From Sphingomonadales bacterium (GTDB lineage Bacteria; Pseudomonadota; Alphaproteobacteria; Sphingomonadales; Sphingomonadaceae), in contig JAXDOX010000036.1 in NCBI GenBank assembly GCA_034668625.1, positions 62,019-126,018 of the forward strand: a DNA stretch of 64,000 bases. Reading direction: 5' to 3'. The notes under the pieces were generated by a model. The model searched no databases. It saw only the letters and a list, made by a program, of their open reading frames with translations, and was not told where the DNA came from. Of this stretch, positions 13,293-20,023 are shown piece by piece; position 1 is the stretch's first letter; each line of letters begins with the position of its first letter. The position numbers were made by a program, and so were the translations under genes.

Positions 13293-13725
13293 CCCCCGCC
13301 CCCACGCCGCGCCCGAACGCGCCTCGGTCCCTGAAAGTGACCGGCCAGGATCCCCCGCCCCGCCAAGTGGCGCGCCTGAATCAAGACCCCAAGGCGTCGG
13401 GGATTCTGCTGCGGCCCAGCCGGGCCAGGCGCGAGGCCCGAAAGTGGCGCGGGGGAGGGTTGCGCTTAAATCACGAGCCGATGCGCTTGTTCGACGAGCG
13501 TGCGGCACAAGGCGACGCCGCTTTCGGGTCCCGTTACGACCGCAAGGACCGCCCGACTGGCCGGTCCCGGATAGTGACCGCGAAGGGATGTCGATGCCCC
13601 GCACCGGGTGCGGCAGTTACCGCGAAGGGATTGCGAACCGGAGAGGCGGCGGCGGGACGTGGCCGGTCACTGATTGTGACCGCGAAGATCGTGCCTCGTC
13701 GGCGCGTCGACCGCGGCGGCGAAGA

Positions 13726-13862
13726 GCGGCGGCGGGTGCCGGCCGCGAGGGCGAGACCTTCCGCCTCCTCCTCCCCCGCCGCGAAGCCAGGCCCGGCCTC
13801 CTCCTCGACTTCGACGCCATCGCGAAAACCCGGTCTTCGGGGCGCGGTGGCGAGGGGTGGAG
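13726..13862. repeat. Imperfect direct repeat, copy 1
   Basis: Shares long identical blocks with 13985..14109: gcggcggcggg, gcgagaccttccgcctcctcct and ctcgacttcgacgccatcgc. Confidence 0.7.
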
Positions 13863-13984
13863 GGTTCGTCTTGAAGTGGTACTTCAAGCCGGGTTGGGCG
13901 GTCACTATTGAGGACCGGCCAAGATTTTCCGCCGCGTTTTTCCCCGTACCCACGTCCCGGGTCTTTGAGGACTCCGGCTGCTGC

Positions 13985-14109
13985 GCGGCGGCGGGCTGGC
14001 GGCGAGACCTTCCGCCTCCTCCTGCCGCGAAGCCCGCCCCGGTATGCTTCTCGACTTCGACGCCATCGCCGAAAACCCCGCCTTCGAGACGCGGTGGCGG
14101 GGGGTGGAG
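13985..14109. repeat. Imperfect direct repeat, copy 2
   Basis: See copy 1. It ends about 20 bp before the GC drop that opens the dcm island. Confidence 0.7.
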
Positions 14110-14232
14110 CGGGAGCAGGAGGGAGATTTAGATATCCACAGGAAAGTCCCGTAACATCCCAGATTTAGTTGCTGGGCCTGATTTTGACGGCTACATCTCC
14201 GCGATGGTGCATCTCCAGCGCTCGCGACACCG

Positions 14233-15288
14233 ATGCTTCTGAGTCTGTTCTGCGGCTGCGGTGGGCTCGATATTGGCTTAGAGAAGGCCGAGCTCAGAGT
14301 CGGACTAGCATACGAGCTTAGAGGTTCCGCCGTCCGGTCGTACAACAGGAATCTGGGGGACGGAAACGTCGCGCGCGTGGGCGACGTGCGGTCGCTCACG
14401 TTAGCTAAGTTGGATGAAGACTTCGGGTCCGTCTTCCAGCCTCGGGGCGTCGTGGGCGGCCCGCCTTGTCAGAGCTTCTCAAGAGCGAATGCCTTGCGAA
14501 AGGCGCCGGATGCACGAAGCGAATTGGTGCGAGAATTTTTTTCGCTCGCCTTAGCGCTGCACCGTCGGTGCGAACTTGACTTCATCATAATGGAGAACGT
14601 TCCGGAGGTAGAGCAGGCTGACGGTGGGCGCCTTCTCGAGCGAGAGTTAAATCGCCTGCGGCGCGCCGGCTTTAGCGTTCGCAAAATGCATCTAAACGCC
14701 ATAAATTTCGGCGTTGCGCAAAGCCGCGAGAGACTATTTGTTACTGCCGTAAATCGAAACAAGGCTGCAGGTACGTTGCGTAGTCCTCCGATCGATAAGG
14801 AGCGCAGGACGGTATGGGACGCGATTGGGGGGCTCCCTGAACCAATCCATTTTGCGGAGGTCGCGAAGGCTGGAGCACCTATCCACCCAAACCATTGGTG
14901 CATGACTCCTCGATCCCGGCGGTTTTCTGATGGGAGCCTCACTCCTGGCTACAGTCGGGGGAGGAGTTTCAAGACGTTGGCCTGGGACCAACCAAGTCCG
15001 ACTGTCTCCTATGGACACCGTGAAGTTCATGTGCACCCAAACTGCCGACGCCGCCTAAGCGTATACGAGGCAATGTTGCTTCAAGGCTTTCCGGCGGATG
15101 TGATACTTGATGGGACACTGTCGGATCAGCTATCTCAAGTGAGCGAAGCGGTGCCACCGCCGCTCGCCGAGCAGGTCGCATTAGCAGTGACGAGCGCTCT
15201 TACGGGTCTTGCTGATCAAGTGCTTCCAGCGCGCCAACTGAGTATCCAACCTCCTGCAGAAGAAGCCGCGTTTCAGCTTTCAGCCTAG
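14233..15288 (+). CDS. dcm: DNA (cytosine-5)-methyltransferase
   Basis: All the canonical C5-MTase motifs I checked are visible: I LFCGCGGLDIGL, IV GGPPCQSFS, VI ENV, VIII QSRERLF, IX RRLSVYEAMLLQGFP, X SEAVPPPLA. Confidence 0.92.
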   Translation: MLLSLFCGCGGLDIGLEKAELRVGLAYELRGSAVRSYNRNLGDGNVARVGDVRSLTLAKLDEDFGSVFQPRGVVGGPPCQSFSRANALRKAPDARSELVREFFSLALALHRRCELDFIIMENVPEVEQADGGRLLERELNRLRRAGFSVRKMHLNAINFGVAQSRERLFVTAVNRNKAAGTLRSPPIDKERRTVWDAIGGLPEPIHFAEVAKAGAPIHPNHWCMTPRSRRFSDGSLTPGYSRGRSFKTLAWDQPSPTVSYGHREVHVHPNCRRRLSVYEAMLLQGFPADVILDGTLSDQLSQVSEAVPPPLAEQVALAVTSALTGLADQVLPARQLSIQPPAEEAAFQLSA

Positions 15289-16411
15289 CGAAGAGCTCGT
15301 TATCGTTCGCGAGCATTCGGTCAAGGTCTTCCATCTGCCGGACCTTTTGCAGCGCCCGGACCGAATAGTCCTCTTGAGGTCCACCTGGGGCCGGCGTGAT
15401 GTTCACTGCGCCGTAAACATCAGCCAGGCCGGGCGGCGGCGGCAGGAACTCGAAAACGAGAGAGGCCATTGAGGCTCTGTTGTCACCCTCGGGAGTGGTT
15501 GAGTAGCAGTACGCGTCATGGACCTTTACTTGCCAGTGCCGCCCTTGCGCGTTCCGTAACAACCACTTGGATAAGCCGAGCACTACGAACTTTAGGAATC
15601 CCGGTCCTCCACCGGAAGCGCCAGCAAGAGCGTCGTCCAGGGCTTGCTCAGGCTCTCCCATGCATGCGGGCGCCTCTCTTGCAAATCTGTCGTTCGCAGC
15701 CGCATTTGCTCTAATTACCTCGGCGAAGGTATTGAGTAACCTTTGAGATATCGTATTCGTCCGCGCGTCGGTTGTAACGTAGAGAAGCCAAGGGTCCACC
15801 GTCTTAGAAAGTTGCAGCTCGACTAGCCGGTGCACCGCGTCAATAATTCTATTGCCCTTATCCTGAGATGGGAGGCCGATAGAGCCACACGCATCAACGT
15901 TCACAACGTGATAGGGCGCACCCTTAGCAACCTCTCTATAGGCTTGGCTTTTCCAAGAACTGATCTCTTCCAGCTTGTAAGGCAACGTTAAAGAACGGTC
16001 GGTAATATATCCGGCCTTTACAAGCGCTTCTTCACGTACTCGCGCGCGCGCCATTACAGAATTGCTTTCCTCTTCTGCAAGGAAACTGGTTGATGTGAGT
16101 TCCACGCTCTCGTAAGCGCAGAGGTCCGCTAACATACGCACATCCAAATAGTCGATCCCCGCTAGTGTGAGATACTTCACCTCAAGTCGGCTGGCGCCGG
16201 GGTTCCAATGGGCTTTTAGATACCTGACAAGTTCCGCAGCGCGGTTGAGCCACTGCCTCTCACGTACGGCTTGTTTCCTAGGACGGTGCCACGGCTGCAA
16301 CGTATCCAAGGGGATCGGGACAGCGAGTTGATCCACGTCTTCCGGAAGGAGGTCCTCCTCCGAAAACGCGTCGGCAAAGTCTTCTGCGTCGTCCGCTGCC
16401 TCCTCCGACAC
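15200..16411 (-). CDS. Hypothetical protein, partner of the GHKL ATPase (no recognisable domain)
   Basis: 403 aa. GTG start overlaps the ATPase stop (TAGTG). Strongly acidic N-terminus (MSEEAADDAEDFADAFSEEDLLPEDVD). Its 3' end overlaps the dcm 3' end by 89 nt, convergently. Confidence 0.6.
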   Translation of the reverse strand: MSEEAADDAEDFADAFSEEDLLPEDVDQLAVPIPLDTLQPWHRPRKQAVRERQWLNRAAELVRYLKAHWNPGASRLEVKYLTLAGIDYLDVRMLADLCAYESVELTSTSFLAEEESNSVMARARVREEALVKAGYITDRSLTLPYKLEEISSWKSQAYREVAKGAPYHVVNVDACGSIGLPSQDKGNRIIDAVHRLVELQLSKTVDPWLLYVTTDARTNTISQRLLNTFAEVIRANAAANDRFAREAPACMGEPEQALDDALAGASGGGPGFLKFVVLGLSKWLLRNAQGRHWQVKVHDAYCYSTTPEGDNRASMASLVFEFLPPPPGLADVYGAVNITPAPGGPQEDYSVRALQKVRQMEDLDRMLANDNELFARLKAETRLLLQEVGYSVGALEALDQQDP

Positions 16412-18291
16412 TACTCGTCTACCGTATTTAGAAGATCACGGATCAATGGAACGCGCTCCGAAAGTGGCAGGCTTGACAAGACTCCATAGGACTCCAAAAC
16501 AACAGCCATCGCAACGGCCTTTGCTCTGGAGCCAAGCGGGATCAGATTTCGCCAGTCTAGATCGACCCCTGCTACTTCGCGAGGCATTACAGTAACATCC
16601 GGCGCTGAAACCGGTGGGTCTGACTCCGCGCCTTGGCGCCGTATCCACACCGCAAGAGCGTTTTCTACGAGTTGCGTTGCTGCCCTCTTGGAAGATTCTT
16701 GTCGTTCGGTTTCGAGGTCTTGGTCGGCGATCTTCTTGAGTCTGTTGACGAGCAGCCTCAGCGCACGATGTAGCCATCTCTGGATAAAAAGAAAGTGAGG
16801 ATGGCTATAGTTAAAGGATTCCCGATCAATGTTGATAGCAGGGTCCAGGCCCTCGTGAACGAATATCTCGGCCGTTATTTGCCGCAGTCTAGTCTGCTCA
16901 GAAACTTGATATCGGAGGAAAGATTGGTCAAATAGGGTACCACTCGCTCCGTGTATACGAATTAGGACGCCGGTGGTGTCCTTCGGCACGATCTTGCTAT
17001 TCCAGTAGAGATAAGCCTCAAAGCGCAGATTACCGCCCGCACGCTCTAGCGCAGTTCTGGAAAATGCTCGCCCAACCTTGCCTATCAGCATTACCGGATG
17101 TTTTAGCCTAGACTTGCGCCGCAAGGTATCCGGCAATCTGATTGGTCGCTGTAAGTGGATACCGTCAATGATGATCTCGAAGCCACCAAGAGGGTCCTTT
17201 AATCCTGCCTCAAGGGAAAAATGCTTCCGAACAGTTTCTTCGGAACCTATTGTGACTGGAAGCGCTTGAGCCTTGGTTTCACTAATCGATAGAAAGTCGA
17301 TGCCACTACTTCCAGTCTTGTCAAACGGATGCGTGTCAACGTACGGCAACGGCAACCCTAGACTTAACTGCCAGATCATCCGTAGGTATTCGTCAAAGTG
17401 TTCTAGGTCGGCTGGCTTCGTAGCCTTTTCTGAGCCAACCTCAGCAGCCTCTATGAGCCGAAGGAATCTTTTCGCCTCTCCCTCGTCCTGCTTCCACGGA
17501 AGCGCGGGCGGTATGCCGTCTGGGTGCGACTTCAGTAAGCCGGGCGGGAGTCCAATATGGTAGATTGGTGGATCCCGCACCGGCTTTCCATCCGGCCCCT
17601 TCTGCTCCGCCGCCTGCCAGCGAAGCACGCTCTGCAGCGCGCGACGGACTTCTGGACGTAGAGAGTAGAGAATGACGGTCGTGCCGTGCGAGTCGATTTC
17701 CCGTTTGGGAACCGGCTCTGCTTTGATTTTAACACGGCCGGCGGCGTAACGACGCCCCTTCGGCAGGTCCCGAAGCGCCTTTTCATTATGAGTTCGCAGG
17801 AGCACTGTCGCCGACGTTCTTGTGAGTTCCCCTCGCGCTTTAGTGATGATCTGAAAGTGTTGTGTGAGCTGAGCAACCGCGAAAAGGCCTATGCCGATCT
17901 TTCCGATTAGAGGCCGTCCGCCGGGACTGAAATCAGGGTTCCCCGGATCGACCGTTTCCAGCTCCGCACCCGAACTTGTACGCTTGGAGCTGCCACCAAT
18001 GCTCTTCACGACGTAAGCGACGGTGTCGGGCCGCATACCATTGCCATTGTCTCGAACAACGACTTGCGAGAAATCAGGGGCGCCGGTTTCTATGACTACC
18101 CGTGTTGCGTCGGCATCATAGGCATTAGCGATCAGCTCCCGATAGGCCGCCCATGGTTCACGGTAAATTCCGTCCGTGACGCGCGCAATAATTCTCTCAT
18201 TTGTCGAGAGTTCCGTCTCGACTACTTCGCCTGTTTCGGCGCTTTGACGAATGCGACTTGCTAGCGTCTCGATTTCGGCGCGATCAGCCAC
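16411..18291 (-). CDS. GHKL-superfamily ATPase (MutL/MORC/Hsp90-like Bergerat fold) with a long uncharacterised C-terminal region
   Basis: GTG start with AGGAGGGG 5 nt upstream. N box ELIANAYDA, G1 box VRDNGNGM, G2 box GKIGIGLFA. I recognise nothing in the roughly 400 aa downstream. Confidence 0.8.
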   Translation of the reverse strand: MADRAEIETLASRIRQSAETGEVVETELSTNERIIARVTDGIYREPWAAYRELIANAYDADATRVVIETGAPDFSQVVVRDNGNGMRPDTVAYVVKSIGGSSKRTSSGAELETVDPGNPDFSPGGRPLIGKIGIGLFAVAQLTQHFQIITKARGELTRTSATVLLRTHNEKALRDLPKGRRYAAGRVKIKAEPVPKREIDSHGTTVILYSLRPEVRRALQSVLRWQAAEQKGPDGKPVRDPPIYHIGLPPGLLKSHPDGIPPALPWKQDEGEAKRFLRLIEAAEVGSEKATKPADLEHFDEYLRMIWQLSLGLPLPYVDTHPFDKTGSSGIDFLSISETKAQALPVTIGSEETVRKHFSLEAGLKDPLGGFEIIIDGIHLQRPIRLPDTLRRKSRLKHPVMLIGKVGRAFSRTALERAGGNLRFEAYLYWNSKIVPKDTTGVLIRIHGASGTLFDQSFLRYQVSEQTRLRQITAEIFVHEGLDPAINIDRESFNYSHPHFLFIQRWLHRALRLLVNRLKKIADQDLETERQESSKRAATQLVENALAVWIRRQGAESDPPVSAPDVTVMPREVAGVDLDWRNLIPLGSRAKAVAMAVVLESYGVLSSLPLSERVPLIRDLLNTVDE

Positions 18292-18314
18292 TCAGCCCCT
18301 CCTGAGCGGCGACG

Positions 18315-18779
18315 CTAGGACAGATGCTTGTCGGCATCAACATTTTGGTTCGCCACAGACGGCGGCGGTGCCGAGGCGAGAAAATCCCGAAGCCGCCTCT
18401 TGAGTGCCGCCGAATCAGCCGTTTCGCAATCCCATATGGTTAGGACGCGCCACCCGGCGGTCTCGAGCGCTGCTCGGCTCCTCTCGTCCCTCGCAACAGT
18501 CGCCGCAAATTTCGGCTCCCAGTATTCCTGTCGGCTTTTTGGGTCGGAGCAATCCGGGCATCCCGCGTGCCGATGCCAAAAGCAGCCATGAACGAAAATT
18601 ATGGCTCGCATTCCAGGAAACACCAAATCCGGCTTCCCAGGAAGGTCCCGGCGATGCAACCGGAAGCGAAAGCCCAACGCATGAGCTGTCCGCCGTACCG
18701 CGAGTTCGGGCTTTGTGTCTTTCGATCGGATCCGCGCCATGTTGGCACTTCGTCTCTCGGGAGATAGGCGCTCAGCCAC
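18315..18779 (-). CDS. vsr: Very short patch repair endonuclease
   Basis: RRSANMARIRSKDTKPE, ...DLPGKPDLVF...AIFVHGCFWHRH..C and ...YWEPKF..N..RD are hallmark Vsr motifs. Confidence 0.9.
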   Translation of the reverse strand: MAERLSPERRSANMARIRSKDTKPELAVRRTAHALGFRFRLHRRDLPGKPDLVFPGMRAIIFVHGCFWHRHAGCPDCSDPKSRQEYWEPKFAATVARDERSRAALETAGWRVLTIWDCETADSAALKRRLRDFLASAPPPSVANQNVDADKHLS

Positions 18780-18806
18780 TATGGATCCAAAGCGGCAAAG
18801 CGCTCT

Positions 18807-19028
18807 TCAATTACCAATCCGTTCGCCGCTGCGGGCGTAATAGCGTTCCGGGCAGCCCAAATGGTTTTTGCCCATGTGCCCTTCCAGACGAAAGGTCTTA
18901 CCATTTGCAAGCCGGCTGCGGAGCTCTCCCTGCGTCTCCAGCGGCACCAACACTCCGCCGCCGCCTTGATAGCGAAGATACCACGTACCATCGACTTCGA
19001 AGACGGTTCCGAAGATTTCACTTTCCAT
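18807..19028 (-). CDS. Small hypothetical protein (73 aa)
   Basis: ATG 19028 lies 2 nt after the XRE gene stop, with GGAGGG 5 nt upstream. Sequence begins MESEIFGTVFEVDGTWYLRYQGGGG.... No recognisable family. Confidence 0.45.
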   Translation of the reverse strand: MESEIFGTVFEVDGTWYLRYQGGGGVLVPLETQGELRSRLANGKTFRLEGHMGKNHLGCPERYYARSGERIGN

Positions 19029-19029
19029 C

Positions 19030-19254
19030 CTACCCTCCAAACAGCTCCCCCGCCCCGACCCCCAACGCCTCAGCGATCCGCCGGATGTTGATCAGGCTGA
19101 CATTCTTCTCCCCCCTCTCGATCGCGCCGAGGTAGGAGCGGTCGAGGCCGCTGGCGAAGGCGAGGGCTTCCTGGCTGAGGCCGCGGGCCTTGCGCAGGGC
19201 GCGCATGCGGGCGCCGAACGCCCGCTTGATCTCGTCCTGGCCGGTGCGGTCCAT
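19030..19254 (-). CDS. XRE-family helix-turn-helix regulator (R-M controller-protein-like size and position)
   Basis: 74 aa. FGARMRALRKARGLSQEALAFASGLDRSYLGAIERGEKNVSLINIRRIAEAL is a classic HTH_XRE pattern. Confidence 0.85.
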   Translation of the reverse strand: MDRTGQDEIKRAFGARMRALRKARGLSQEALAFASGLDRSYLGAIERGEKNVSLINIRRIAEALGVGAGELFGG

Positions 19255-19339
19255 GCCCGGACGGTCGGGCGTTTGCGGACTATGGGTCCACCTTCAATGA
19301 TTCCCATATGGAGCGATTCGGGCTCCGAAATGGACCCTT

Positions 19340-19804
19340 TCACCCCACCAGCCGCGCCGCCTCGGCGGCTTCGAAATGCGCGTGCATGGCCGCGGCGCCG
19401 TCCGGCGTGAGGCGGGCGTGGACGCCGTTTTCGGCCTTCGGATCGGGGACCCGTTCGGCCCAGCCGGCCGCAGTGAGCCGGCCCAGCCAGCGGGCGACGG
19501 TGGCGGGGGCGAGGCGGGCTTCCACCGCGAGGCGGTTGATGCGGACGCCGGGCTCGCCGGCGAGGCGGGCTCGGTAGAGCTCGAGCAGCAGGCTCCAGCC
19601 GGGATGGGAGAGGTCGAGGCCGAAGGTCGCGGCGCGGGCGCGGCGGGCGCCGATCGCCAGGGCGACGTTGAGCGCGGTCGGCGGGCCGGGGGCGGCGGCC
19701 TCGCGGCGGGCGGCGTCGCCCTCGGCATAGGCGCCGAGCAGCCGGGAGATGTGGTCGAGATCGTCGGCGAGCTCTTCGAGGAAGGTCCTGTCCGGCTCTG
19801 CCAC
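19340..19804 (-). CDS. Winged-helix (MarR-like) transcriptional regulator
   Basis: Start placed at GTG 19804 (VAEPDRTF...), preceded by GGGGAA and a TATAGT-like box. The wHTH core is INRLAVEARLAPATVARWLGRLTAAGWAERV. The longer ORF-track start (19993) would run through the palindrome and promoter-like sequence. Confidence 0.55.
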   Translation of the reverse strand: MAEPDRTFLEELADDLDHISRLLGAYAEGDAARREAAAPGPPTALNVALAIGARRARAATFGLDLSHPGWSLLLELYRARLAGEPGVRINRLAVEARLAPATVARWLGRLTAAGWAERVPDPKAENGVHARLTPDGAAAMHAHFEAAEAARLVG

Positions 19805-19847
19805 GATTCCCCGCTTAGCGCAATTTTGCGGACTATAATACCCTGTT

Positions 19848-19872
19848 TCCCTCGAAATGGCATTTCGAGGGA
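19848..19872. promoter_or_regulatory. Perfect palindrome in the divergent MarR-like / 3xHTH intergenic region (candidate operator)
   Basis: tccctcgaaat-ggc-atttcgaggga, with 11-bp arms. It sits about 10-35 nt upstream of the TATAGT-like box of the MarR-like gene. Confidence 0.4.
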
Positions 19873-20023
19873 GGGACGGAAGAAGGTGGATGCCGGGTCC
19901 CTGATTTTCATCAGGGCAGGCAGGCCCGGCATGACGGAGTGGGGGTGCGCGGCCCAGTGAGGCAGGGCCGCGTTCCTCATGCGTTCTTTTCATTTTCCTA
20001 CAGGGGGCGGGTTGTGGGATAGG

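Follow-up and report, generated by a model that had tools for sequence, protein, structure and literature searches.

A low-GC island in a Sphingomonadales bacterium that joins a paraMORC-type GHKL ATPase and a methyltransferase-fold partner to Dcm and Vsr: a candidate restriction-modification module

Operons in which GHKL ATPases of the paraMORC type accompany Dcm methylases and Vsr were described in 2008 by Iyer, Abhiman and Aravind (PMC2292703), whose work is purely computational and predicts that MORC and paraMORC ATPases act in restriction-modification (R-M) operons together with Dcm, Vsr, HNH nucleases and SNF2 helicases. One member of this assemblage, paraMORC3, has been validated as the Shedu-type protein VcSduA, which carries a fused PD-(D/E)xK nuclease (PMC12137116), and R.HgiDII is a GHKL-bearing Type II restriction endonuclease, with no fold assigned to its C-terminal domain (PMC2441816). 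The “two-component-like” genes HEF_HK and Response_reg_2 are likewise associated with R-M systems (Bellieny-Rabelo 2021, PMC8011034). Further points of comparison are the MutL-MutH/Vsr proteins of E. coli and the BREX and DISARM systems.

The window analysed here is a stretch of 64,000 nucleotides from a Sphingomonadales bacterium (contig JAXDOX010000036.1). A lower-GC stretch had been noticed in it from the letters alone, and the trough was recovered: the island has a GC content of 0.568, compared with 0.677 in the remainder of the window, and the lowest-GC 5-kb segment within the 64 kb begins at position 14101. The six open reading frames described there were confirmed, with their junctions, and the features of the island are as follows.

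14233 to 15288, plus strand: Dcm, a C5-cytosine DNA methyltransferase of 351 aa, the presumed self-marking enzyme (PF00145, E=5.6e-40)
15200 to 15288, no strand assigned: 3'-3' overlap of 89 bp between the convergent Dcm and partner genes (ORF coordinates)
15200 to 16411, minus strand: partner protein of the PP_RS20740 family, 403 aa (NF047698, 288.8 bits, cut-off 200, residues 18-393)
16411 to 16415, minus strand: TAGTG stop/start overlap of the ATPase and partner genes, indicating translational coupling (read directly)
16411 to 18291, minus strand: GHKL ATPase of paraMORC type, 626 aa (HATPase_c_3, E=1e-13)
18315 to 18779, minus strand: Vsr, a very-short-patch T:G mismatch endonuclease, accessory (TIGR00632, 144.8 bits, cut-off 97.85)
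18807 to 19028, minus strand: 73-aa ORF, the first low-GC gene of the operon (dN/dS 0.11 against the L078 orthologue)
19030 to 19254, minus strand: XRE-type controller (C) protein, 74 aa (PADLOC Control_protein PDLC03664, E=2.8e-24, full length)
19277 to 19289, minus strand: C-box-like palindrome GGACCCATAGTCC, centred 29 nt upstream of the ATG of the C gene (read directly)

The GC3 of the island genes is 0.56-0.63, while that of the flanking host genes is about 0.9; the XRE gene, in contrast to the other genes of the operon, is host-like (0.93). All six genes are intact in L078, a syntenic metagenomic orthologue, and the comparison indicates purifying selection on every one of them (dN/dS 0.04-0.22). 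Judged by composition, the low-GC island is horizontally acquired. The triad of Dcm, ATPase and partner genes lies close to contig ends in 11 of 13 prophage-type contigs from IMG/VR, and this position, the low GC and the low GC3 together count as evidence of mobility in favour of an R-M-type reading.

The gene order points the same way. The controller matches HTH_3 (E=4e-17), and an HTH protein encoded ahead of the R genes, with a putative palindromic C-box upstream, is the arrangement of controllers in Type II R-M systems. The palindrome GGACCCATAGTCC is identical in L078, GACTCATAGTC stands upstream of the XRE gene in L028, and we take GGACCCATAGTCC to resemble the published GACT...AGTC C-boxes. 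The controller match, the conserved palindrome and the C-first order fit an R-M design and, together with the C5-MTase found in nearly all related loci, uphold the R-M-type cassette layout of the original prediction. We put at roughly one half the probability that the island is a C-protein-controlled, paraMORC-type R-M module.

Dcm would supply the cognate methyltransferase of such a C-protein-regulated Type II system, and its catalytic motifs are present. As first claimed, it is a complete C5-MTase: it scores 123 bits against TIGR00675 (cut-off 100.65), FxGxGG, PPCQ, ENV and QxRxR are readable in its translation, and motifs I, IV, VI and VIII do not vary across alignment A3. M.HaeIII is its closest solved structure (1e-26). 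Among the defence models of PADLOC, it also matches the methylases DrmMII of DISARM and DruM of Druantia. The island resembles BREX and DISARM in combining a methylase self mark with ATPases and proteins of unassigned chemistry; it differs in having no other BREX, DISARM or Druantia component, and the ATPase and partner match none of the PADLOC models of these systems. In PADLOC-DB v2 there are matches to the methylase, to Vsr and to the controller and, beyond these, just two weak ones of the ATPase, both to REase_II; the 403-aa protein has no match there, and no signature non-methylase component of a known system was detected. The module class was predicted in 2008; the ATPase-partner pair itself has no defence-database model. 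The view that this gene combination has no characterised mechanism stands insofar as our literature searches returned no paper giving one for the pair; systems of this kind, nevertheless, have been known since the 2008 study (PMC2292703), and GHKL-bearing restriction enzymes such as R.HgiDII have been recorded (PMC2441816).

The 626-aa protein was confirmed to have the Bergerat-fold N-terminus ascribed to it, both by HATPase_c_3 and by the motifs ELIANAYDA, VRDNGNGM and GKIGIGLFA. Its ATP-binding residues E52, N56, D81, G83, G85, G130, G133 and G135 are invariant among 33 ATPase homologues, and GHKL motifs I-IV are intact, as in paraMORC and MORC proteins. Beyond this part, the AF2 model (pLDDT 82.2) shows a transducer domain, an extended helix at residues 498-553 and, at the C-terminus, a helical domain, and Foldseek aligns it over more than 500 columns with MORC2 (1.5e-9), Hsp90, TopoVI-B, MORC3 and MutL. 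The S5-like transducer, which had been named as a fold to look for, is modelled C-terminal to the GHKL domain, where it corresponds to MORC2, MORC3, the MutL fragment LN40 and TopoVI-B. The motif GhXhhpXXRhl in the S5 domain separates MORC proper from paraMORC, and inspection by eye of region 400-500 of alignment A2, made without a reference alignment, gave no convincing match. The likeness to paraMORC and MORC proteins lies in the GHKL and S5-like transducer domains with intact ATP motifs; the protein is paraMORC-type, could not be mapped to a numbered paraMORC family, and has no counterpart of the PD-(D/E)xK nuclease fused to paraMORC3/VcSduA.

The closest named match of the N-terminal GHKL domain, a weak one, is the R.HgiDII/BbrUII family (NF050001); this nearness to restriction enzymes, like that to the REase_II models of PADLOC, speaks for an R-M module, as do the fold matches of the ATPase and its intact ATP motifs. 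A full BbrUII/HgiDII enzyme was rejected: the score is 53.7 bits where 550 is required, and only positions 25-182 of the 659 in the profile match. The two systems have in common a methylase partner and a nuclease domain without an assigned fold; however, HgiDII is a single polypeptide, whereas here the function would be split over two co-translated proteins, and the 403-aa partner has no similarity to the family. MutL was likewise rejected as an identity for the ATPase, since the TIGR00585 profile gives 36.3 bits against a cut-off of 180, covers residues 45-95 only and finds no MutL C-terminal dimerisation domain.

The 403-aa partner, thought at first to be unassignable, has a named family and a recognisable fold. 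It exceeds the cut-off of NF047698 (the PP_RS20740 family), and PF28273 is carried by all of its homologues among those listed. Its AF2 model (pLDDT 83.7) shows the topology of class I methyltransferases, namely a seven-stranded Rossmann-type fold with a C-terminal β-hairpin. Methyltransferases are the top Foldseek matches in the PDB, which also returns GRAS-domain complexes, and most of the named matches in BFVD; E values reach 5.6e-5 (PDB) and 4.2e-6 (BFVD), with TM-scores of just ~0.3. The partner models as a class-I methyltransferase fold and not as a known nuclease. Residues conserved in at least 90% of 69 sequences, most of them in 69 of 69, are W41, H42, K46, Q47, R50, Y80, G85, D87, D90, S140, N171, D173, Q200, T213, W283, Y303 and D364. 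The invariant polar residues cluster at the C-terminal ends of β1 and β4, and the conserved residues are identical with or without an adjacent nuclease gene.

In methyltransferases that bind SAM, GxGxG constitutes motif I and an acidic residue at the end of β2 belongs to motif II. The partner has no canonical GxGxG, the sequence after β1 being P84-G85-x-D87-x-x-D90, and no invariant acidic motif II residue, β2 ending at the invariant G109-F110. Even at E<=10, none of 33 family members matches any of the methyltransferase families in Pfam; hhalign of the family against the Dcm alignment gives a probability of 0.2%, that is, no profile similarity to C5-MTases; and a PDB sequence search with the partner gave no match. 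Given these motifs and the missing profile similarity, both SAM binding and base flipping are conjectural. The loop after β4 contains C175, which three of the 69 members replace by Thr, and this speaks against a covalent mechanism through Cys. We consider it highly improbable that the partner is an enzyme that draws on the ATPase to introduce or convert a DNA modification in concert with Dcm, in an epigenetic and not a defensive role. The methyltransferase fold, the invariant polar cluster resembling an active site and the failure to find a nuclease would suit this idea; against it stand the absent or altered SAM-binding motifs, and C-protein control, asymmetric decay and association with nucleases and helicases, all of which indicate a conflict system.

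The ATPase and partner genes are adjacent in all 73 loci compared, with a gap of at most 5 nt in 68 of the 73 and a median of a 4-nt overlap, and these loci span Proteobacteria, Actinobacteria, Acidobacteria, Bacteroidota, Verrucomicrobia and Chloroflexi. The distance matrices of the two proteins correlate with a Spearman coefficient of 0.89. In the window itself an AGGAGG precedes the ATPase GTG by 6 nt. The co-translation predicted from the TAGTG junction thus extends, on the evidence of gene position and co-divergence, to an obligate pair.

A C5-MTase is linked to the pair in nearly all loci (profile search), so that the methyltransferase linkage sought through homologues of the 403-aa protein is conserved. 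Two fixed layouts occur, convergent (30 loci) and co-directional (27 loci), and in 26 of the 30 convergent loci the Dcm and partner genes overlap, by a median of 37 nt. The distances of Dcm correlate with those of the pair at 0.48-0.63; once shared history is allowed for, the partner-Dcm partial correlation is ~0.05-0.17 (hand calculation), which means that the partner does not co-vary with Dcm beyond that history. All three genes are intact in 54 loci. In at least five (L010, L017, L021, L023 and L071) the ATPase or the partner is broken while Dcm is intact, and the reverse, a damaged Dcm beside an intact pair, is seen only in L064; such asymmetric decay would be predicted for a pair that does harm in the absence of its methylase.

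Four Streptomyces loci depart from the methylase linkage: they carry HNH-ATPase-partner operons, the HNH gene encoding a nuclease, and have no methylase gene in the surrounding 10 kb. A strict logic of attacking unmethylated sites does not fit them, except where the host is shielded by a methylase encoded elsewhere. They favour the reading that the pair senses foreign cytosine modification, as Type IV systems do, with the linked Dcm having another specificity or role, and a methyltransferase fold could read a flipped modified base. Nevertheless, in the great majority of loci Dcm lies beside the pair and is inherited with it, decay favours keeping it, and a 5mC methylase of its own beside a 5mC-dependent effector would be self-destructive; we find this reading very doubtful.

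In methylase-less loci or in larger clusters, the pair is accompanied by HNH, NaeI-like or NOV_C nucleases and by an SNF2 helicase. The neighbourhoods of MORC and paraMORC genes are reproduced here (methylases, Vsr, HNH or RE-fold nucleases, SF2 helicases), the operon partners being those that PMC2292703 names, namely cytosine methylases, Vsr, HNH nucleases and SNF2 helicases. The sporadic, laterally mobile distribution is a further likeness, and our actinobacterial clusters fit the operons pictured in that work, the excerpts of which do not describe an obligate methyltransferase-fold partner of the PP_RS20740 family. In L070, L054 and L067 the pair adjoins a complete Dcm and NaeI-like R-M pair, and may thus be an accessory and not the restriction enzyme itself.

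Neither HMM searches nor Foldseek with the AF2 models detected a PD-(D/E)xK, HNH, GIY-YIG, PLD or half-pipe nuclease in the 626-aa or the 403-aa protein, a result that counts against the R-M module. The original statement that no restriction endonuclease motif occurs anywhere in the island holds for both large proteins, but not for Vsr, which has a restriction-endonuclease fold and is the sole protein of the island that does; a restriction endonuclease of recognised fold, such as a C-protein-regulated Type II system would have, was not found in either large protein. Many triads elsewhere also have no nuclease gene. On this basis the partner might load a MORC-like clamp on unmethylated DNA, which would block replication or transcription or compact the DNA with no cleavage. 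We judge this quite unlikely. DNA-bound MORC2 is among the best fold matches, the long helix and the helical C-terminal domain of the modelled ATPase would suit dimerisation, and BREX is presented, in the abstract of PMC9122589, as a system that depends on a methylase and has no nuclease; still, the argument is one from absence of evidence alone, GHKL-type restriction enzymes such as HgiDII do cut DNA (PMC2441816), and nucleases often accompany the pair. The logic of such exclusion is shared with BREX and with eukaryotic MORCs.

A broader version, which seems to us rather unlikely, is that the triad provides nuclease-free, methylation-guided immunity, in which a repurposed methyltransferase fold would probe cytosines for the self mark and load a MORC-like, ATP-driven clamp on unmarked DNA, and the clamp would either block or compact that DNA or pass it to any available nuclease. 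In a variant, the partner would be a new restriction enzyme built on a methyltransferase fold, acting for example by base excision or through a new metal site. If the broader version is true, the triad would be the prokaryotic ancestor of the link between MORC ATPases and DNA methylation in eukaryotes.

Vsr aligns at 1e-24 with its E. coli counterpart (1cw0), has retained the motifs LPGxPD and HGCFWH and, with its catalytic Asp, zinc ligands and score above the cut-off, is a Vsr endonuclease. The island thus shares with E. coli MutL-MutH/Vsr a GHKL and transducer fold and a Vsr combined with a discriminating methylation mark. It has no MutS, and its ATPase falls far below the MutL model cut-offs and lacks a C-terminal dimerisation or endonuclease domain. 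A non-cutting pair could sense the state of the DNA and activate a separate nuclease, here Vsr, possibly in repair of T:G mismatches linked to 5mC. Such licensing, which we hold to be unlikely, would agree with the position of Vsr, which shares an operon with the ATPase gene and precedes it by 23 nt, with the stimulation of E. coli Vsr by MutL (cited in PMC2292703), with the fold match to the N-terminal 40-kDa fragment of MutL, with the HNH, NaeI-like or NOV_C nucleases adjoining the pair in other loci and with the unchanged conserved residues of the partner whether or not a nuclease is adjacent. However, only 31 of the 76 related loci have a Vsr gene, at variable positions, and the other 45 lack one within 10 kb; many triads have no nuclease gene; C-protein control and asymmetric decay suggest a product harmful without methylation, unlike a repair helper; and the MutL model gives only 36 bits against 180, with no MutL C-terminal domain. 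Vsr is therefore optional across ATPase-partner loci, which disfavours, as a general function, the second reading of the original prediction, a MutL-like helper of Vsr. Its first reading, an effector directed against unmarked DNA, is the better supported of the two, although no nuclease was found for it.

In the R-M module that we prefer, Dcm would methylate the target cytosines of host DNA as the self mark, and Vsr would mend T:G mismatches arising from 5mC deamination and so limit mutagenesis, as housekeeping for the element. Like the controllers of classical C-regulated R-M systems, the XRE protein would delay and set expression of the minus-strand operon. The 626-aa ATPase and the methyltransferase-fold protein of 403 aa, made by coupled translation, would form an obligate complex and act as the effector. 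Gene content, folds, coupling, linkage and decay pattern are observed, whereas sensitivity to methylation, DNA binding and a damaging step are inferred for this pair: the methyltransferase-fold subunit may read DNA at Dcm sites, probably probing the base in the conserved D87/D90/N171/D173 pocket, the ATPase dimer may then close on DNA in an ATP-dependent manner, as MutL, MORC and TopoVI-B do, and unmethylated foreign DNA would be damaged or blocked. The damage could come from a catalytic site of the pair that escaped recognition or from a nuclease licensed by the pair, which here would be Vsr or a host enzyme and elsewhere an HNH, NaeI-like or NOV_C nuclease.

The XRE gene and the 73-aa ORF, taken at first as parts of the module, turned out to be local additions that are not conserved with it. 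The ATG of the ORF lies one base past the XRE stop, with GGAGGG inside the last XRE codons; its product matches nothing in the HMM libraries searched. The HEF_HK/Response_reg_2 genes recall the island in that a HATPase_c_3 protein and a second conserved protein lie beside a C5-MTase and Vsr; neither protein of the window matched PF19191 or PF19192 (Pfam scan, E<=0.1), and the HEF_HK-type combination of a HATPase_c_3 protein with a histidine-kinase-like HATPase_c occurs not in the window but in L079. Only two homologues of the 73-aa ORF were found among 5.8 billion proteins, and in L079 a homologue leads a different GHKL operon behind another XRE gene, followed by the HATPase_c_3 protein and the histidine-kinase-like HATPase_c.

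All six genes of the original prediction were recovered, with their coordinates, in the ORF list of the window:

14233-15288, plus strand: Dcm C5-methyltransferase, 351 aa
15200-16411, minus strand: partner of the ATPase, 403 aa
16411-18291, minus strand: GHKL ATPase, 626 aa
18315-18779, minus strand: Vsr, 154 aa
18807-19028, minus strand: small ORF, 73 aa counted from the ATG, 77 aa from an upstream TTG
19030-19254, minus strand: XRE controller, 74 aa

Direct reading of the junctions confirmed the TAGTG overlap, in which the stop codon of the ATPase and the start codon of the partner have one base in common, and the tight XRE/small-ORF junction, where the small-ORF ATG lies one base past the XRE stop with GGAGGG ahead of it. 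The ATPase GTG stands 23 nt after the Vsr stop and has AGGAGG 6 nt upstream, and the convergent Dcm and partner genes overlap by 89 bp. The island is of lower GC, as predicted (0.568 compared with 0.677 elsewhere in the window); of all 5-kb stretches in the 64-kb window, the one beginning at 14101 has the lowest GC, and GC3 is 0.56-0.63 in the island genes against ~0.9 in KatG and a desaturase-like neighbour. A syntenic metagenomic orthologue (L078; 86% nucleotide identity, same KatG/LysR flank) has all six genes intact, with dN/dS values of 0.04 for the ATPase, 0.07 for the partner, 0.11 for Dcm, 0.11 for the small ORF, 0.18 for XRE and 0.22 for Vsr, and because of this conservation we take all six ORFs, the small one included, to be real genes. 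Just left of the island, an intergenic repeat cluster (13300-14130) contains direct repeats of ~57, 40 and 29 nt with a spacing of ~246 nt and several inverted arms of 24-38 nt containing GGTCAC; the tract is ~450 bp longer than in L078 and could be a REP/MITE-like array at the insertion site.

Dcm is a complete C5-methyltransferase whose closest solved relative is M.HaeIII. Vsr is authentic, scoring above the TIGR00632 cut-off and keeping the catalytic and zinc motifs when aligned with E. coli Vsr, and XRE matches the models of restriction-modification (R-M) controller proteins over its full length (E=2.8e-24). The palindrome GGACCCATAGTCC, 29 nt upstream of the XRE ATG and identical in the metagenomic orthologue, resembles published GACT...AGTC C-boxes and is a candidate C-box; L028, one of the related loci, has GACTCATAGTC upstream of its own XRE. 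XRE genes are rare among the related loci, and the window is an intact, C-regulated example of the system, with Vsr.

The two large proteins were modelled with AlphaFold2 on alignments of 33 sequences. All GHKL ATP-binding motifs of the ATPase are invariant in 33 homologues. Its model (pLDDT 82) is matched by Foldseek, over more than 500 aligned columns, to MORC2 (1.5e-9), Hsp90, TopoVI-B, MORC3 and MutL LN40, and the modelled architecture is a GHKL domain with a transducer, as had been looked for, after which come a helix of 55 residues and a C-terminal domain that is also helical. Among named families, the BbrUII/HgiDII restriction enzymes come nearest, with a match confined to the N-terminus and far below the cut-off; scores against MutL models are also far below their cut-off, and the plasmid search gives only weak N-terminal matches, on four plasmids.

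The original prediction left the 403-aa protein unassigned. The partner does belong to a named family, NCBIfam NF047698 “PP_RS20740 family” (score 288.8 bits, cut-off 200), equivalent to Pfam PF28273; the literature searched contains no functional work on this family or on the gene combination. In that literature, its namesake in P. putida KT2440 appears only among the genes mutated during experimental evolution of furfural tolerance, annotated as a hypothetical protein. In an exhaustive search of representatives, the family resolves into ~719 clusters (50% identity). Nearly all of these are proteins of ~400 aa that stand alone, and none of them offers a fusion as a functional hint; neither PLSDB (plasmids) nor INPHARED (phages) contains a match. 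The partner model (pLDDT 83.7) has the β-α-β topology and terminal β-hairpin typical of class-I methyltransferases, which are the top PDB hits and most of the named BFVD hits (rRNA m5C, small-molecule, DNA N6A and cap enzymes), at E-values down to ~5e-5 and ~4e-6 with modest TM-scores of ~0.3; the PDB search also returns GRAS-domain complexes. Because of this topology and these matches, the predicted fold of the partner is a methyltransferase fold.

PDB profile, hhalign and Pfam searches reveal no sequence-level link between the partner and any methyltransferase family, and neither the GxGxG motif of canonical enzymes nor the acidic residue of motif II is conserved among 69 sequences with identities down to ~25%. 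The residues that are conserved in at least 90% of this set, most of them in 69/69, form an N-terminal block (PWHxPRKQxxRxxQW), P-G85-x-D87-x-x-D90 after β1 and N171-x-D173 after β4, together with S140, Q200, T213, W283, Y303 and D364, and they are the same in the Dcm-linked, HNH-linked and eight-gene contexts. From these alignments, the chemistry of the partner is probably not ordinary SAM-dependent methyl transfer; that the system performs a second-step DNA modification is highly improbable. The partner was also considered as a diverged paralogue of C5-methyltransferases, and hhalign against the Dcm alignment gave a probability of only 0.2%. The NIDACGS loop after β4 recalls motif IV of m5C methylases; catalysis by a covalent cysteine was dropped as the leading idea because C175 is Thr in 3/69 members.

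Searches for a cryptic nuclease in either protein with Pfam, NCBIfam, PADLOC, PHROGs, PDB sequence profiles and Foldseek against PDB and BFVD found none, and the predicted lack of a restriction-nuclease motif therefore holds for these two proteins at the HMM, profile and fold levels. PADLOC returns two weak REase_II matches to the ATPase and nothing to the partner, and none of its named multi-gene systems is matched by either protein. A clamp acting with no nuclease at all has in our judgement a rather small probability.

Related loci, 77 in all, were collected by scanning one genome per species for peptide patterns; since these patterns were exact, the survey samples the family and does not list every member, and ORF starts are longest-ORF calls. 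The hosts belong to Alpha- and Gammaproteobacteria, Actinobacteria, Acidobacteria, Bacteroidota, Verrucomicrobia and Chloroflexi. In 73/73 loci with both genes, that of the ATPase immediately precedes that of the partner, with a gap of at most 5 nt in 68 of the 73 (median, a 4-nt overlap), in keeping with the proposed co-translation, and the pairwise-identity matrices of the two proteins are correlated (Spearman 0.89). Hand-calculated partial correlations of ~0.05-0.17 between partner and Dcm are not informative about co-variation beyond common ancestry. With a profile search, Dcm is present near the pair in nearly all loci. Thirty have the convergent layout of the window, with 3’ ends overlapping in 26/30 (median 37 nt), and 27 have a co-directional Dcm-ATPase-partner operon. 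Of the three neighbours that the original prediction asked about for the 403-aa gene, the ATPase is adjacent wherever both genes are present and Dcm is there nearly always, but Vsr is found in only 31/76 loci, in varying positions. The reading in which the ATPase and partner are a MutL-like matchmaker or helper of Vsr in T:G repair is weakened because Vsr is optional, and we regard it as unlikely.

Decay of the loci is asymmetric: the ATPase or partner is broken beside an intact Dcm in five (L010, L017, L021, L023 and L071), and Dcm is damaged beside an intact pair in L064 only, although some of the broken genes may be assembly errors because many loci come from MAGs. Insertions of 1-2.3 kb interrupt the ATPase gene of L017 (6944-9234) and both the ATPase and partner genes of L071 (6813-8044, 8897-9953), with Dcm adjoining and intact in each.

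These results point, with a probability of about 0.5, to an R-M-type module in which self DNA carries the Dcm mark and DNA without it is the target of the ATPase-partner complex. This reading is favoured because of the near-obligate methylase linkage, the C-protein control and the decay asymmetry, which also uphold the R-M-type layout predicted earlier, and because of the proximity of the ATPase N-terminus to a restriction-enzyme family and the horizontal mobility. Vsr would keep mutation down, as it usually does alongside 5mC, the methyltransferase-fold subunit would interrogate target sites, and the ATPase dimer would work as MutL, MORC and TopoVI-B do, as a clamp or switch driven by ATP. 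The damage could come from an unrecognised catalytic site in the pair, from a separate nuclease that the pair licenses (here Vsr or a host enzyme, elsewhere HNH, NaeI-like or NOV_C proteins), or from blocking without a nuclease.

Two sets of actinobacterial loci depart from the common layout. In four Streptomyces loci without a C5-methylase within 10 kb, a gene for an HNH endonuclease abuts the pair; three loci from Nocardioides and Terrabacter have a shuffled eight-gene set (Dcm, NaeI-like REase, HNH, a 485-aa protein with a weak ParB-like N-terminal match, SNF2 helicase, the RE-fold protein NOV_C, ATPase and partner):

L040, 6738-11176: Streptomyces, HNH and pair
L048, 6742-11176: Streptomyces, HNH and pair
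L050, 6756-11176: Streptomyces, HNH and pair
L035, 7906-12024: Streptomyces, HNH and pair
L054, 39-11077: eight-gene set
L067, 904-11095: eight-gene set
L070, 784-11089: eight-gene set

The Streptomyces version may be a modification-dependent variant. These Dcm-less loci are the sole support for the reading of the whole system as a modification-dependent sensor, which is very doubtful. The HNH protein has ~351 aa in L040, L048 and L050, and its 250 N-terminal residues match nothing. In L054 and L067, the 485-aa, SNF2, NOV_C, ATPase and partner genes form an overlapping co-directional run.

R-M-associated GHKL ATPases were predicted computationally in 2008, and that study (PMC2292703) reported MORC/paraMORC neighbourhoods with SNF2, HNH and methylase genes, which the eight-gene sets mirror. 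GHKL-bearing restriction enzymes are listed in REBASE-based surveys (PMC2441816), and in those such as HgiDII the nuclease domain is likewise without an assigned fold (PMC2441816); one paraMORC family, paraMORC3, was validated in the form of the Shedu-type VcSduA, which has a nuclease fused to it (PMC12137116). The system in the window differs in that its effector is split over two co-translated proteins, the second with a predicted methyltransferase fold, in that neither protein carries a recognisable nuclease, and in that neither matches a named multi-gene PADLOC system. A 2025 review of R-M biology does not mention GHKL, MORC, MutL or Vsr. Of the GHKL ATPases predicted in R-M operons since 2008, none of the kinds without a fused nuclease has a known mechanism, and these loci offer a compact three-gene model with an obligate two-protein effector, spread over ~700 clusters at 50% identity, many phyla and prophage-type contigs, and missing from PADLOC. 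Its solution could reveal a new DNA-attacking or DNA-blocking chemistry on a methyltransferase fold. It could also show how an epigenetic mark is linked to a clamp of the MutL/MORC type, a question relevant to how eukaryotic MORC function arose. The system would also be a barrier to reckon with when transforming environmental Alphaproteobacteria, Pseudomonas (PP_RS20740 is a gene of P. putida KT2440) and Actinobacteria.

Eleven of the 13 IMG/VR prophage-type contigs (L080-L092) carry Dcm, ATPase and partner as a co-directional triad near the contig end, usually 1-7 kb from it, as would be expected of cargo carried at the edge of a prophage. Three of the contigs (L086, L090 and L092) have another C5-methylase-like ORF, a weaker match, next to the triad on the opposite strand.

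The small ORF is found in no other locus of the 77-locus survey, and a search of 5.8 billion proteins gives just two homologues. The product of one, with 68% identity, is encoded on an 8.5-kb Logan contig (SRR19019131; L079, 2073-8334), where it also follows an XRE gene, whose product is 40% identical to that of the window, and heads a different GHKL operon for proteins of 465, 827 (HATPase_c_3 plus a histidine-kinase-like HATPase_c) and 569 aa, with no methylase visible on the contig. The 73-aa protein may serve GHKL-type cassettes specifically, as their leader or co-regulator. A compositional boundary falls exactly at the XRE/small-ORF junction (19028-19032), with GC3 stepping from 0.93, which is host-like, to 0.61; the step is 0.83 to 0.58 in L078 (3182-3629) and 0.87 to 0.67 in the unrelated L079 island (2073-2539). 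The step suggests that the controller gene may have a history different from that of the cassette, or may lie at a point of cassette exchange. The genes upstream of XRE in the window (19340-19993, minus strand) and in L079 (1480-1977), of ~155-217 aa and host-like GC, have a common short motif, P-x-W-x-x-x-LELY (single-comparison E=8e-4), which hints at a three-gene regulatory neighbourhood conserved between the two.
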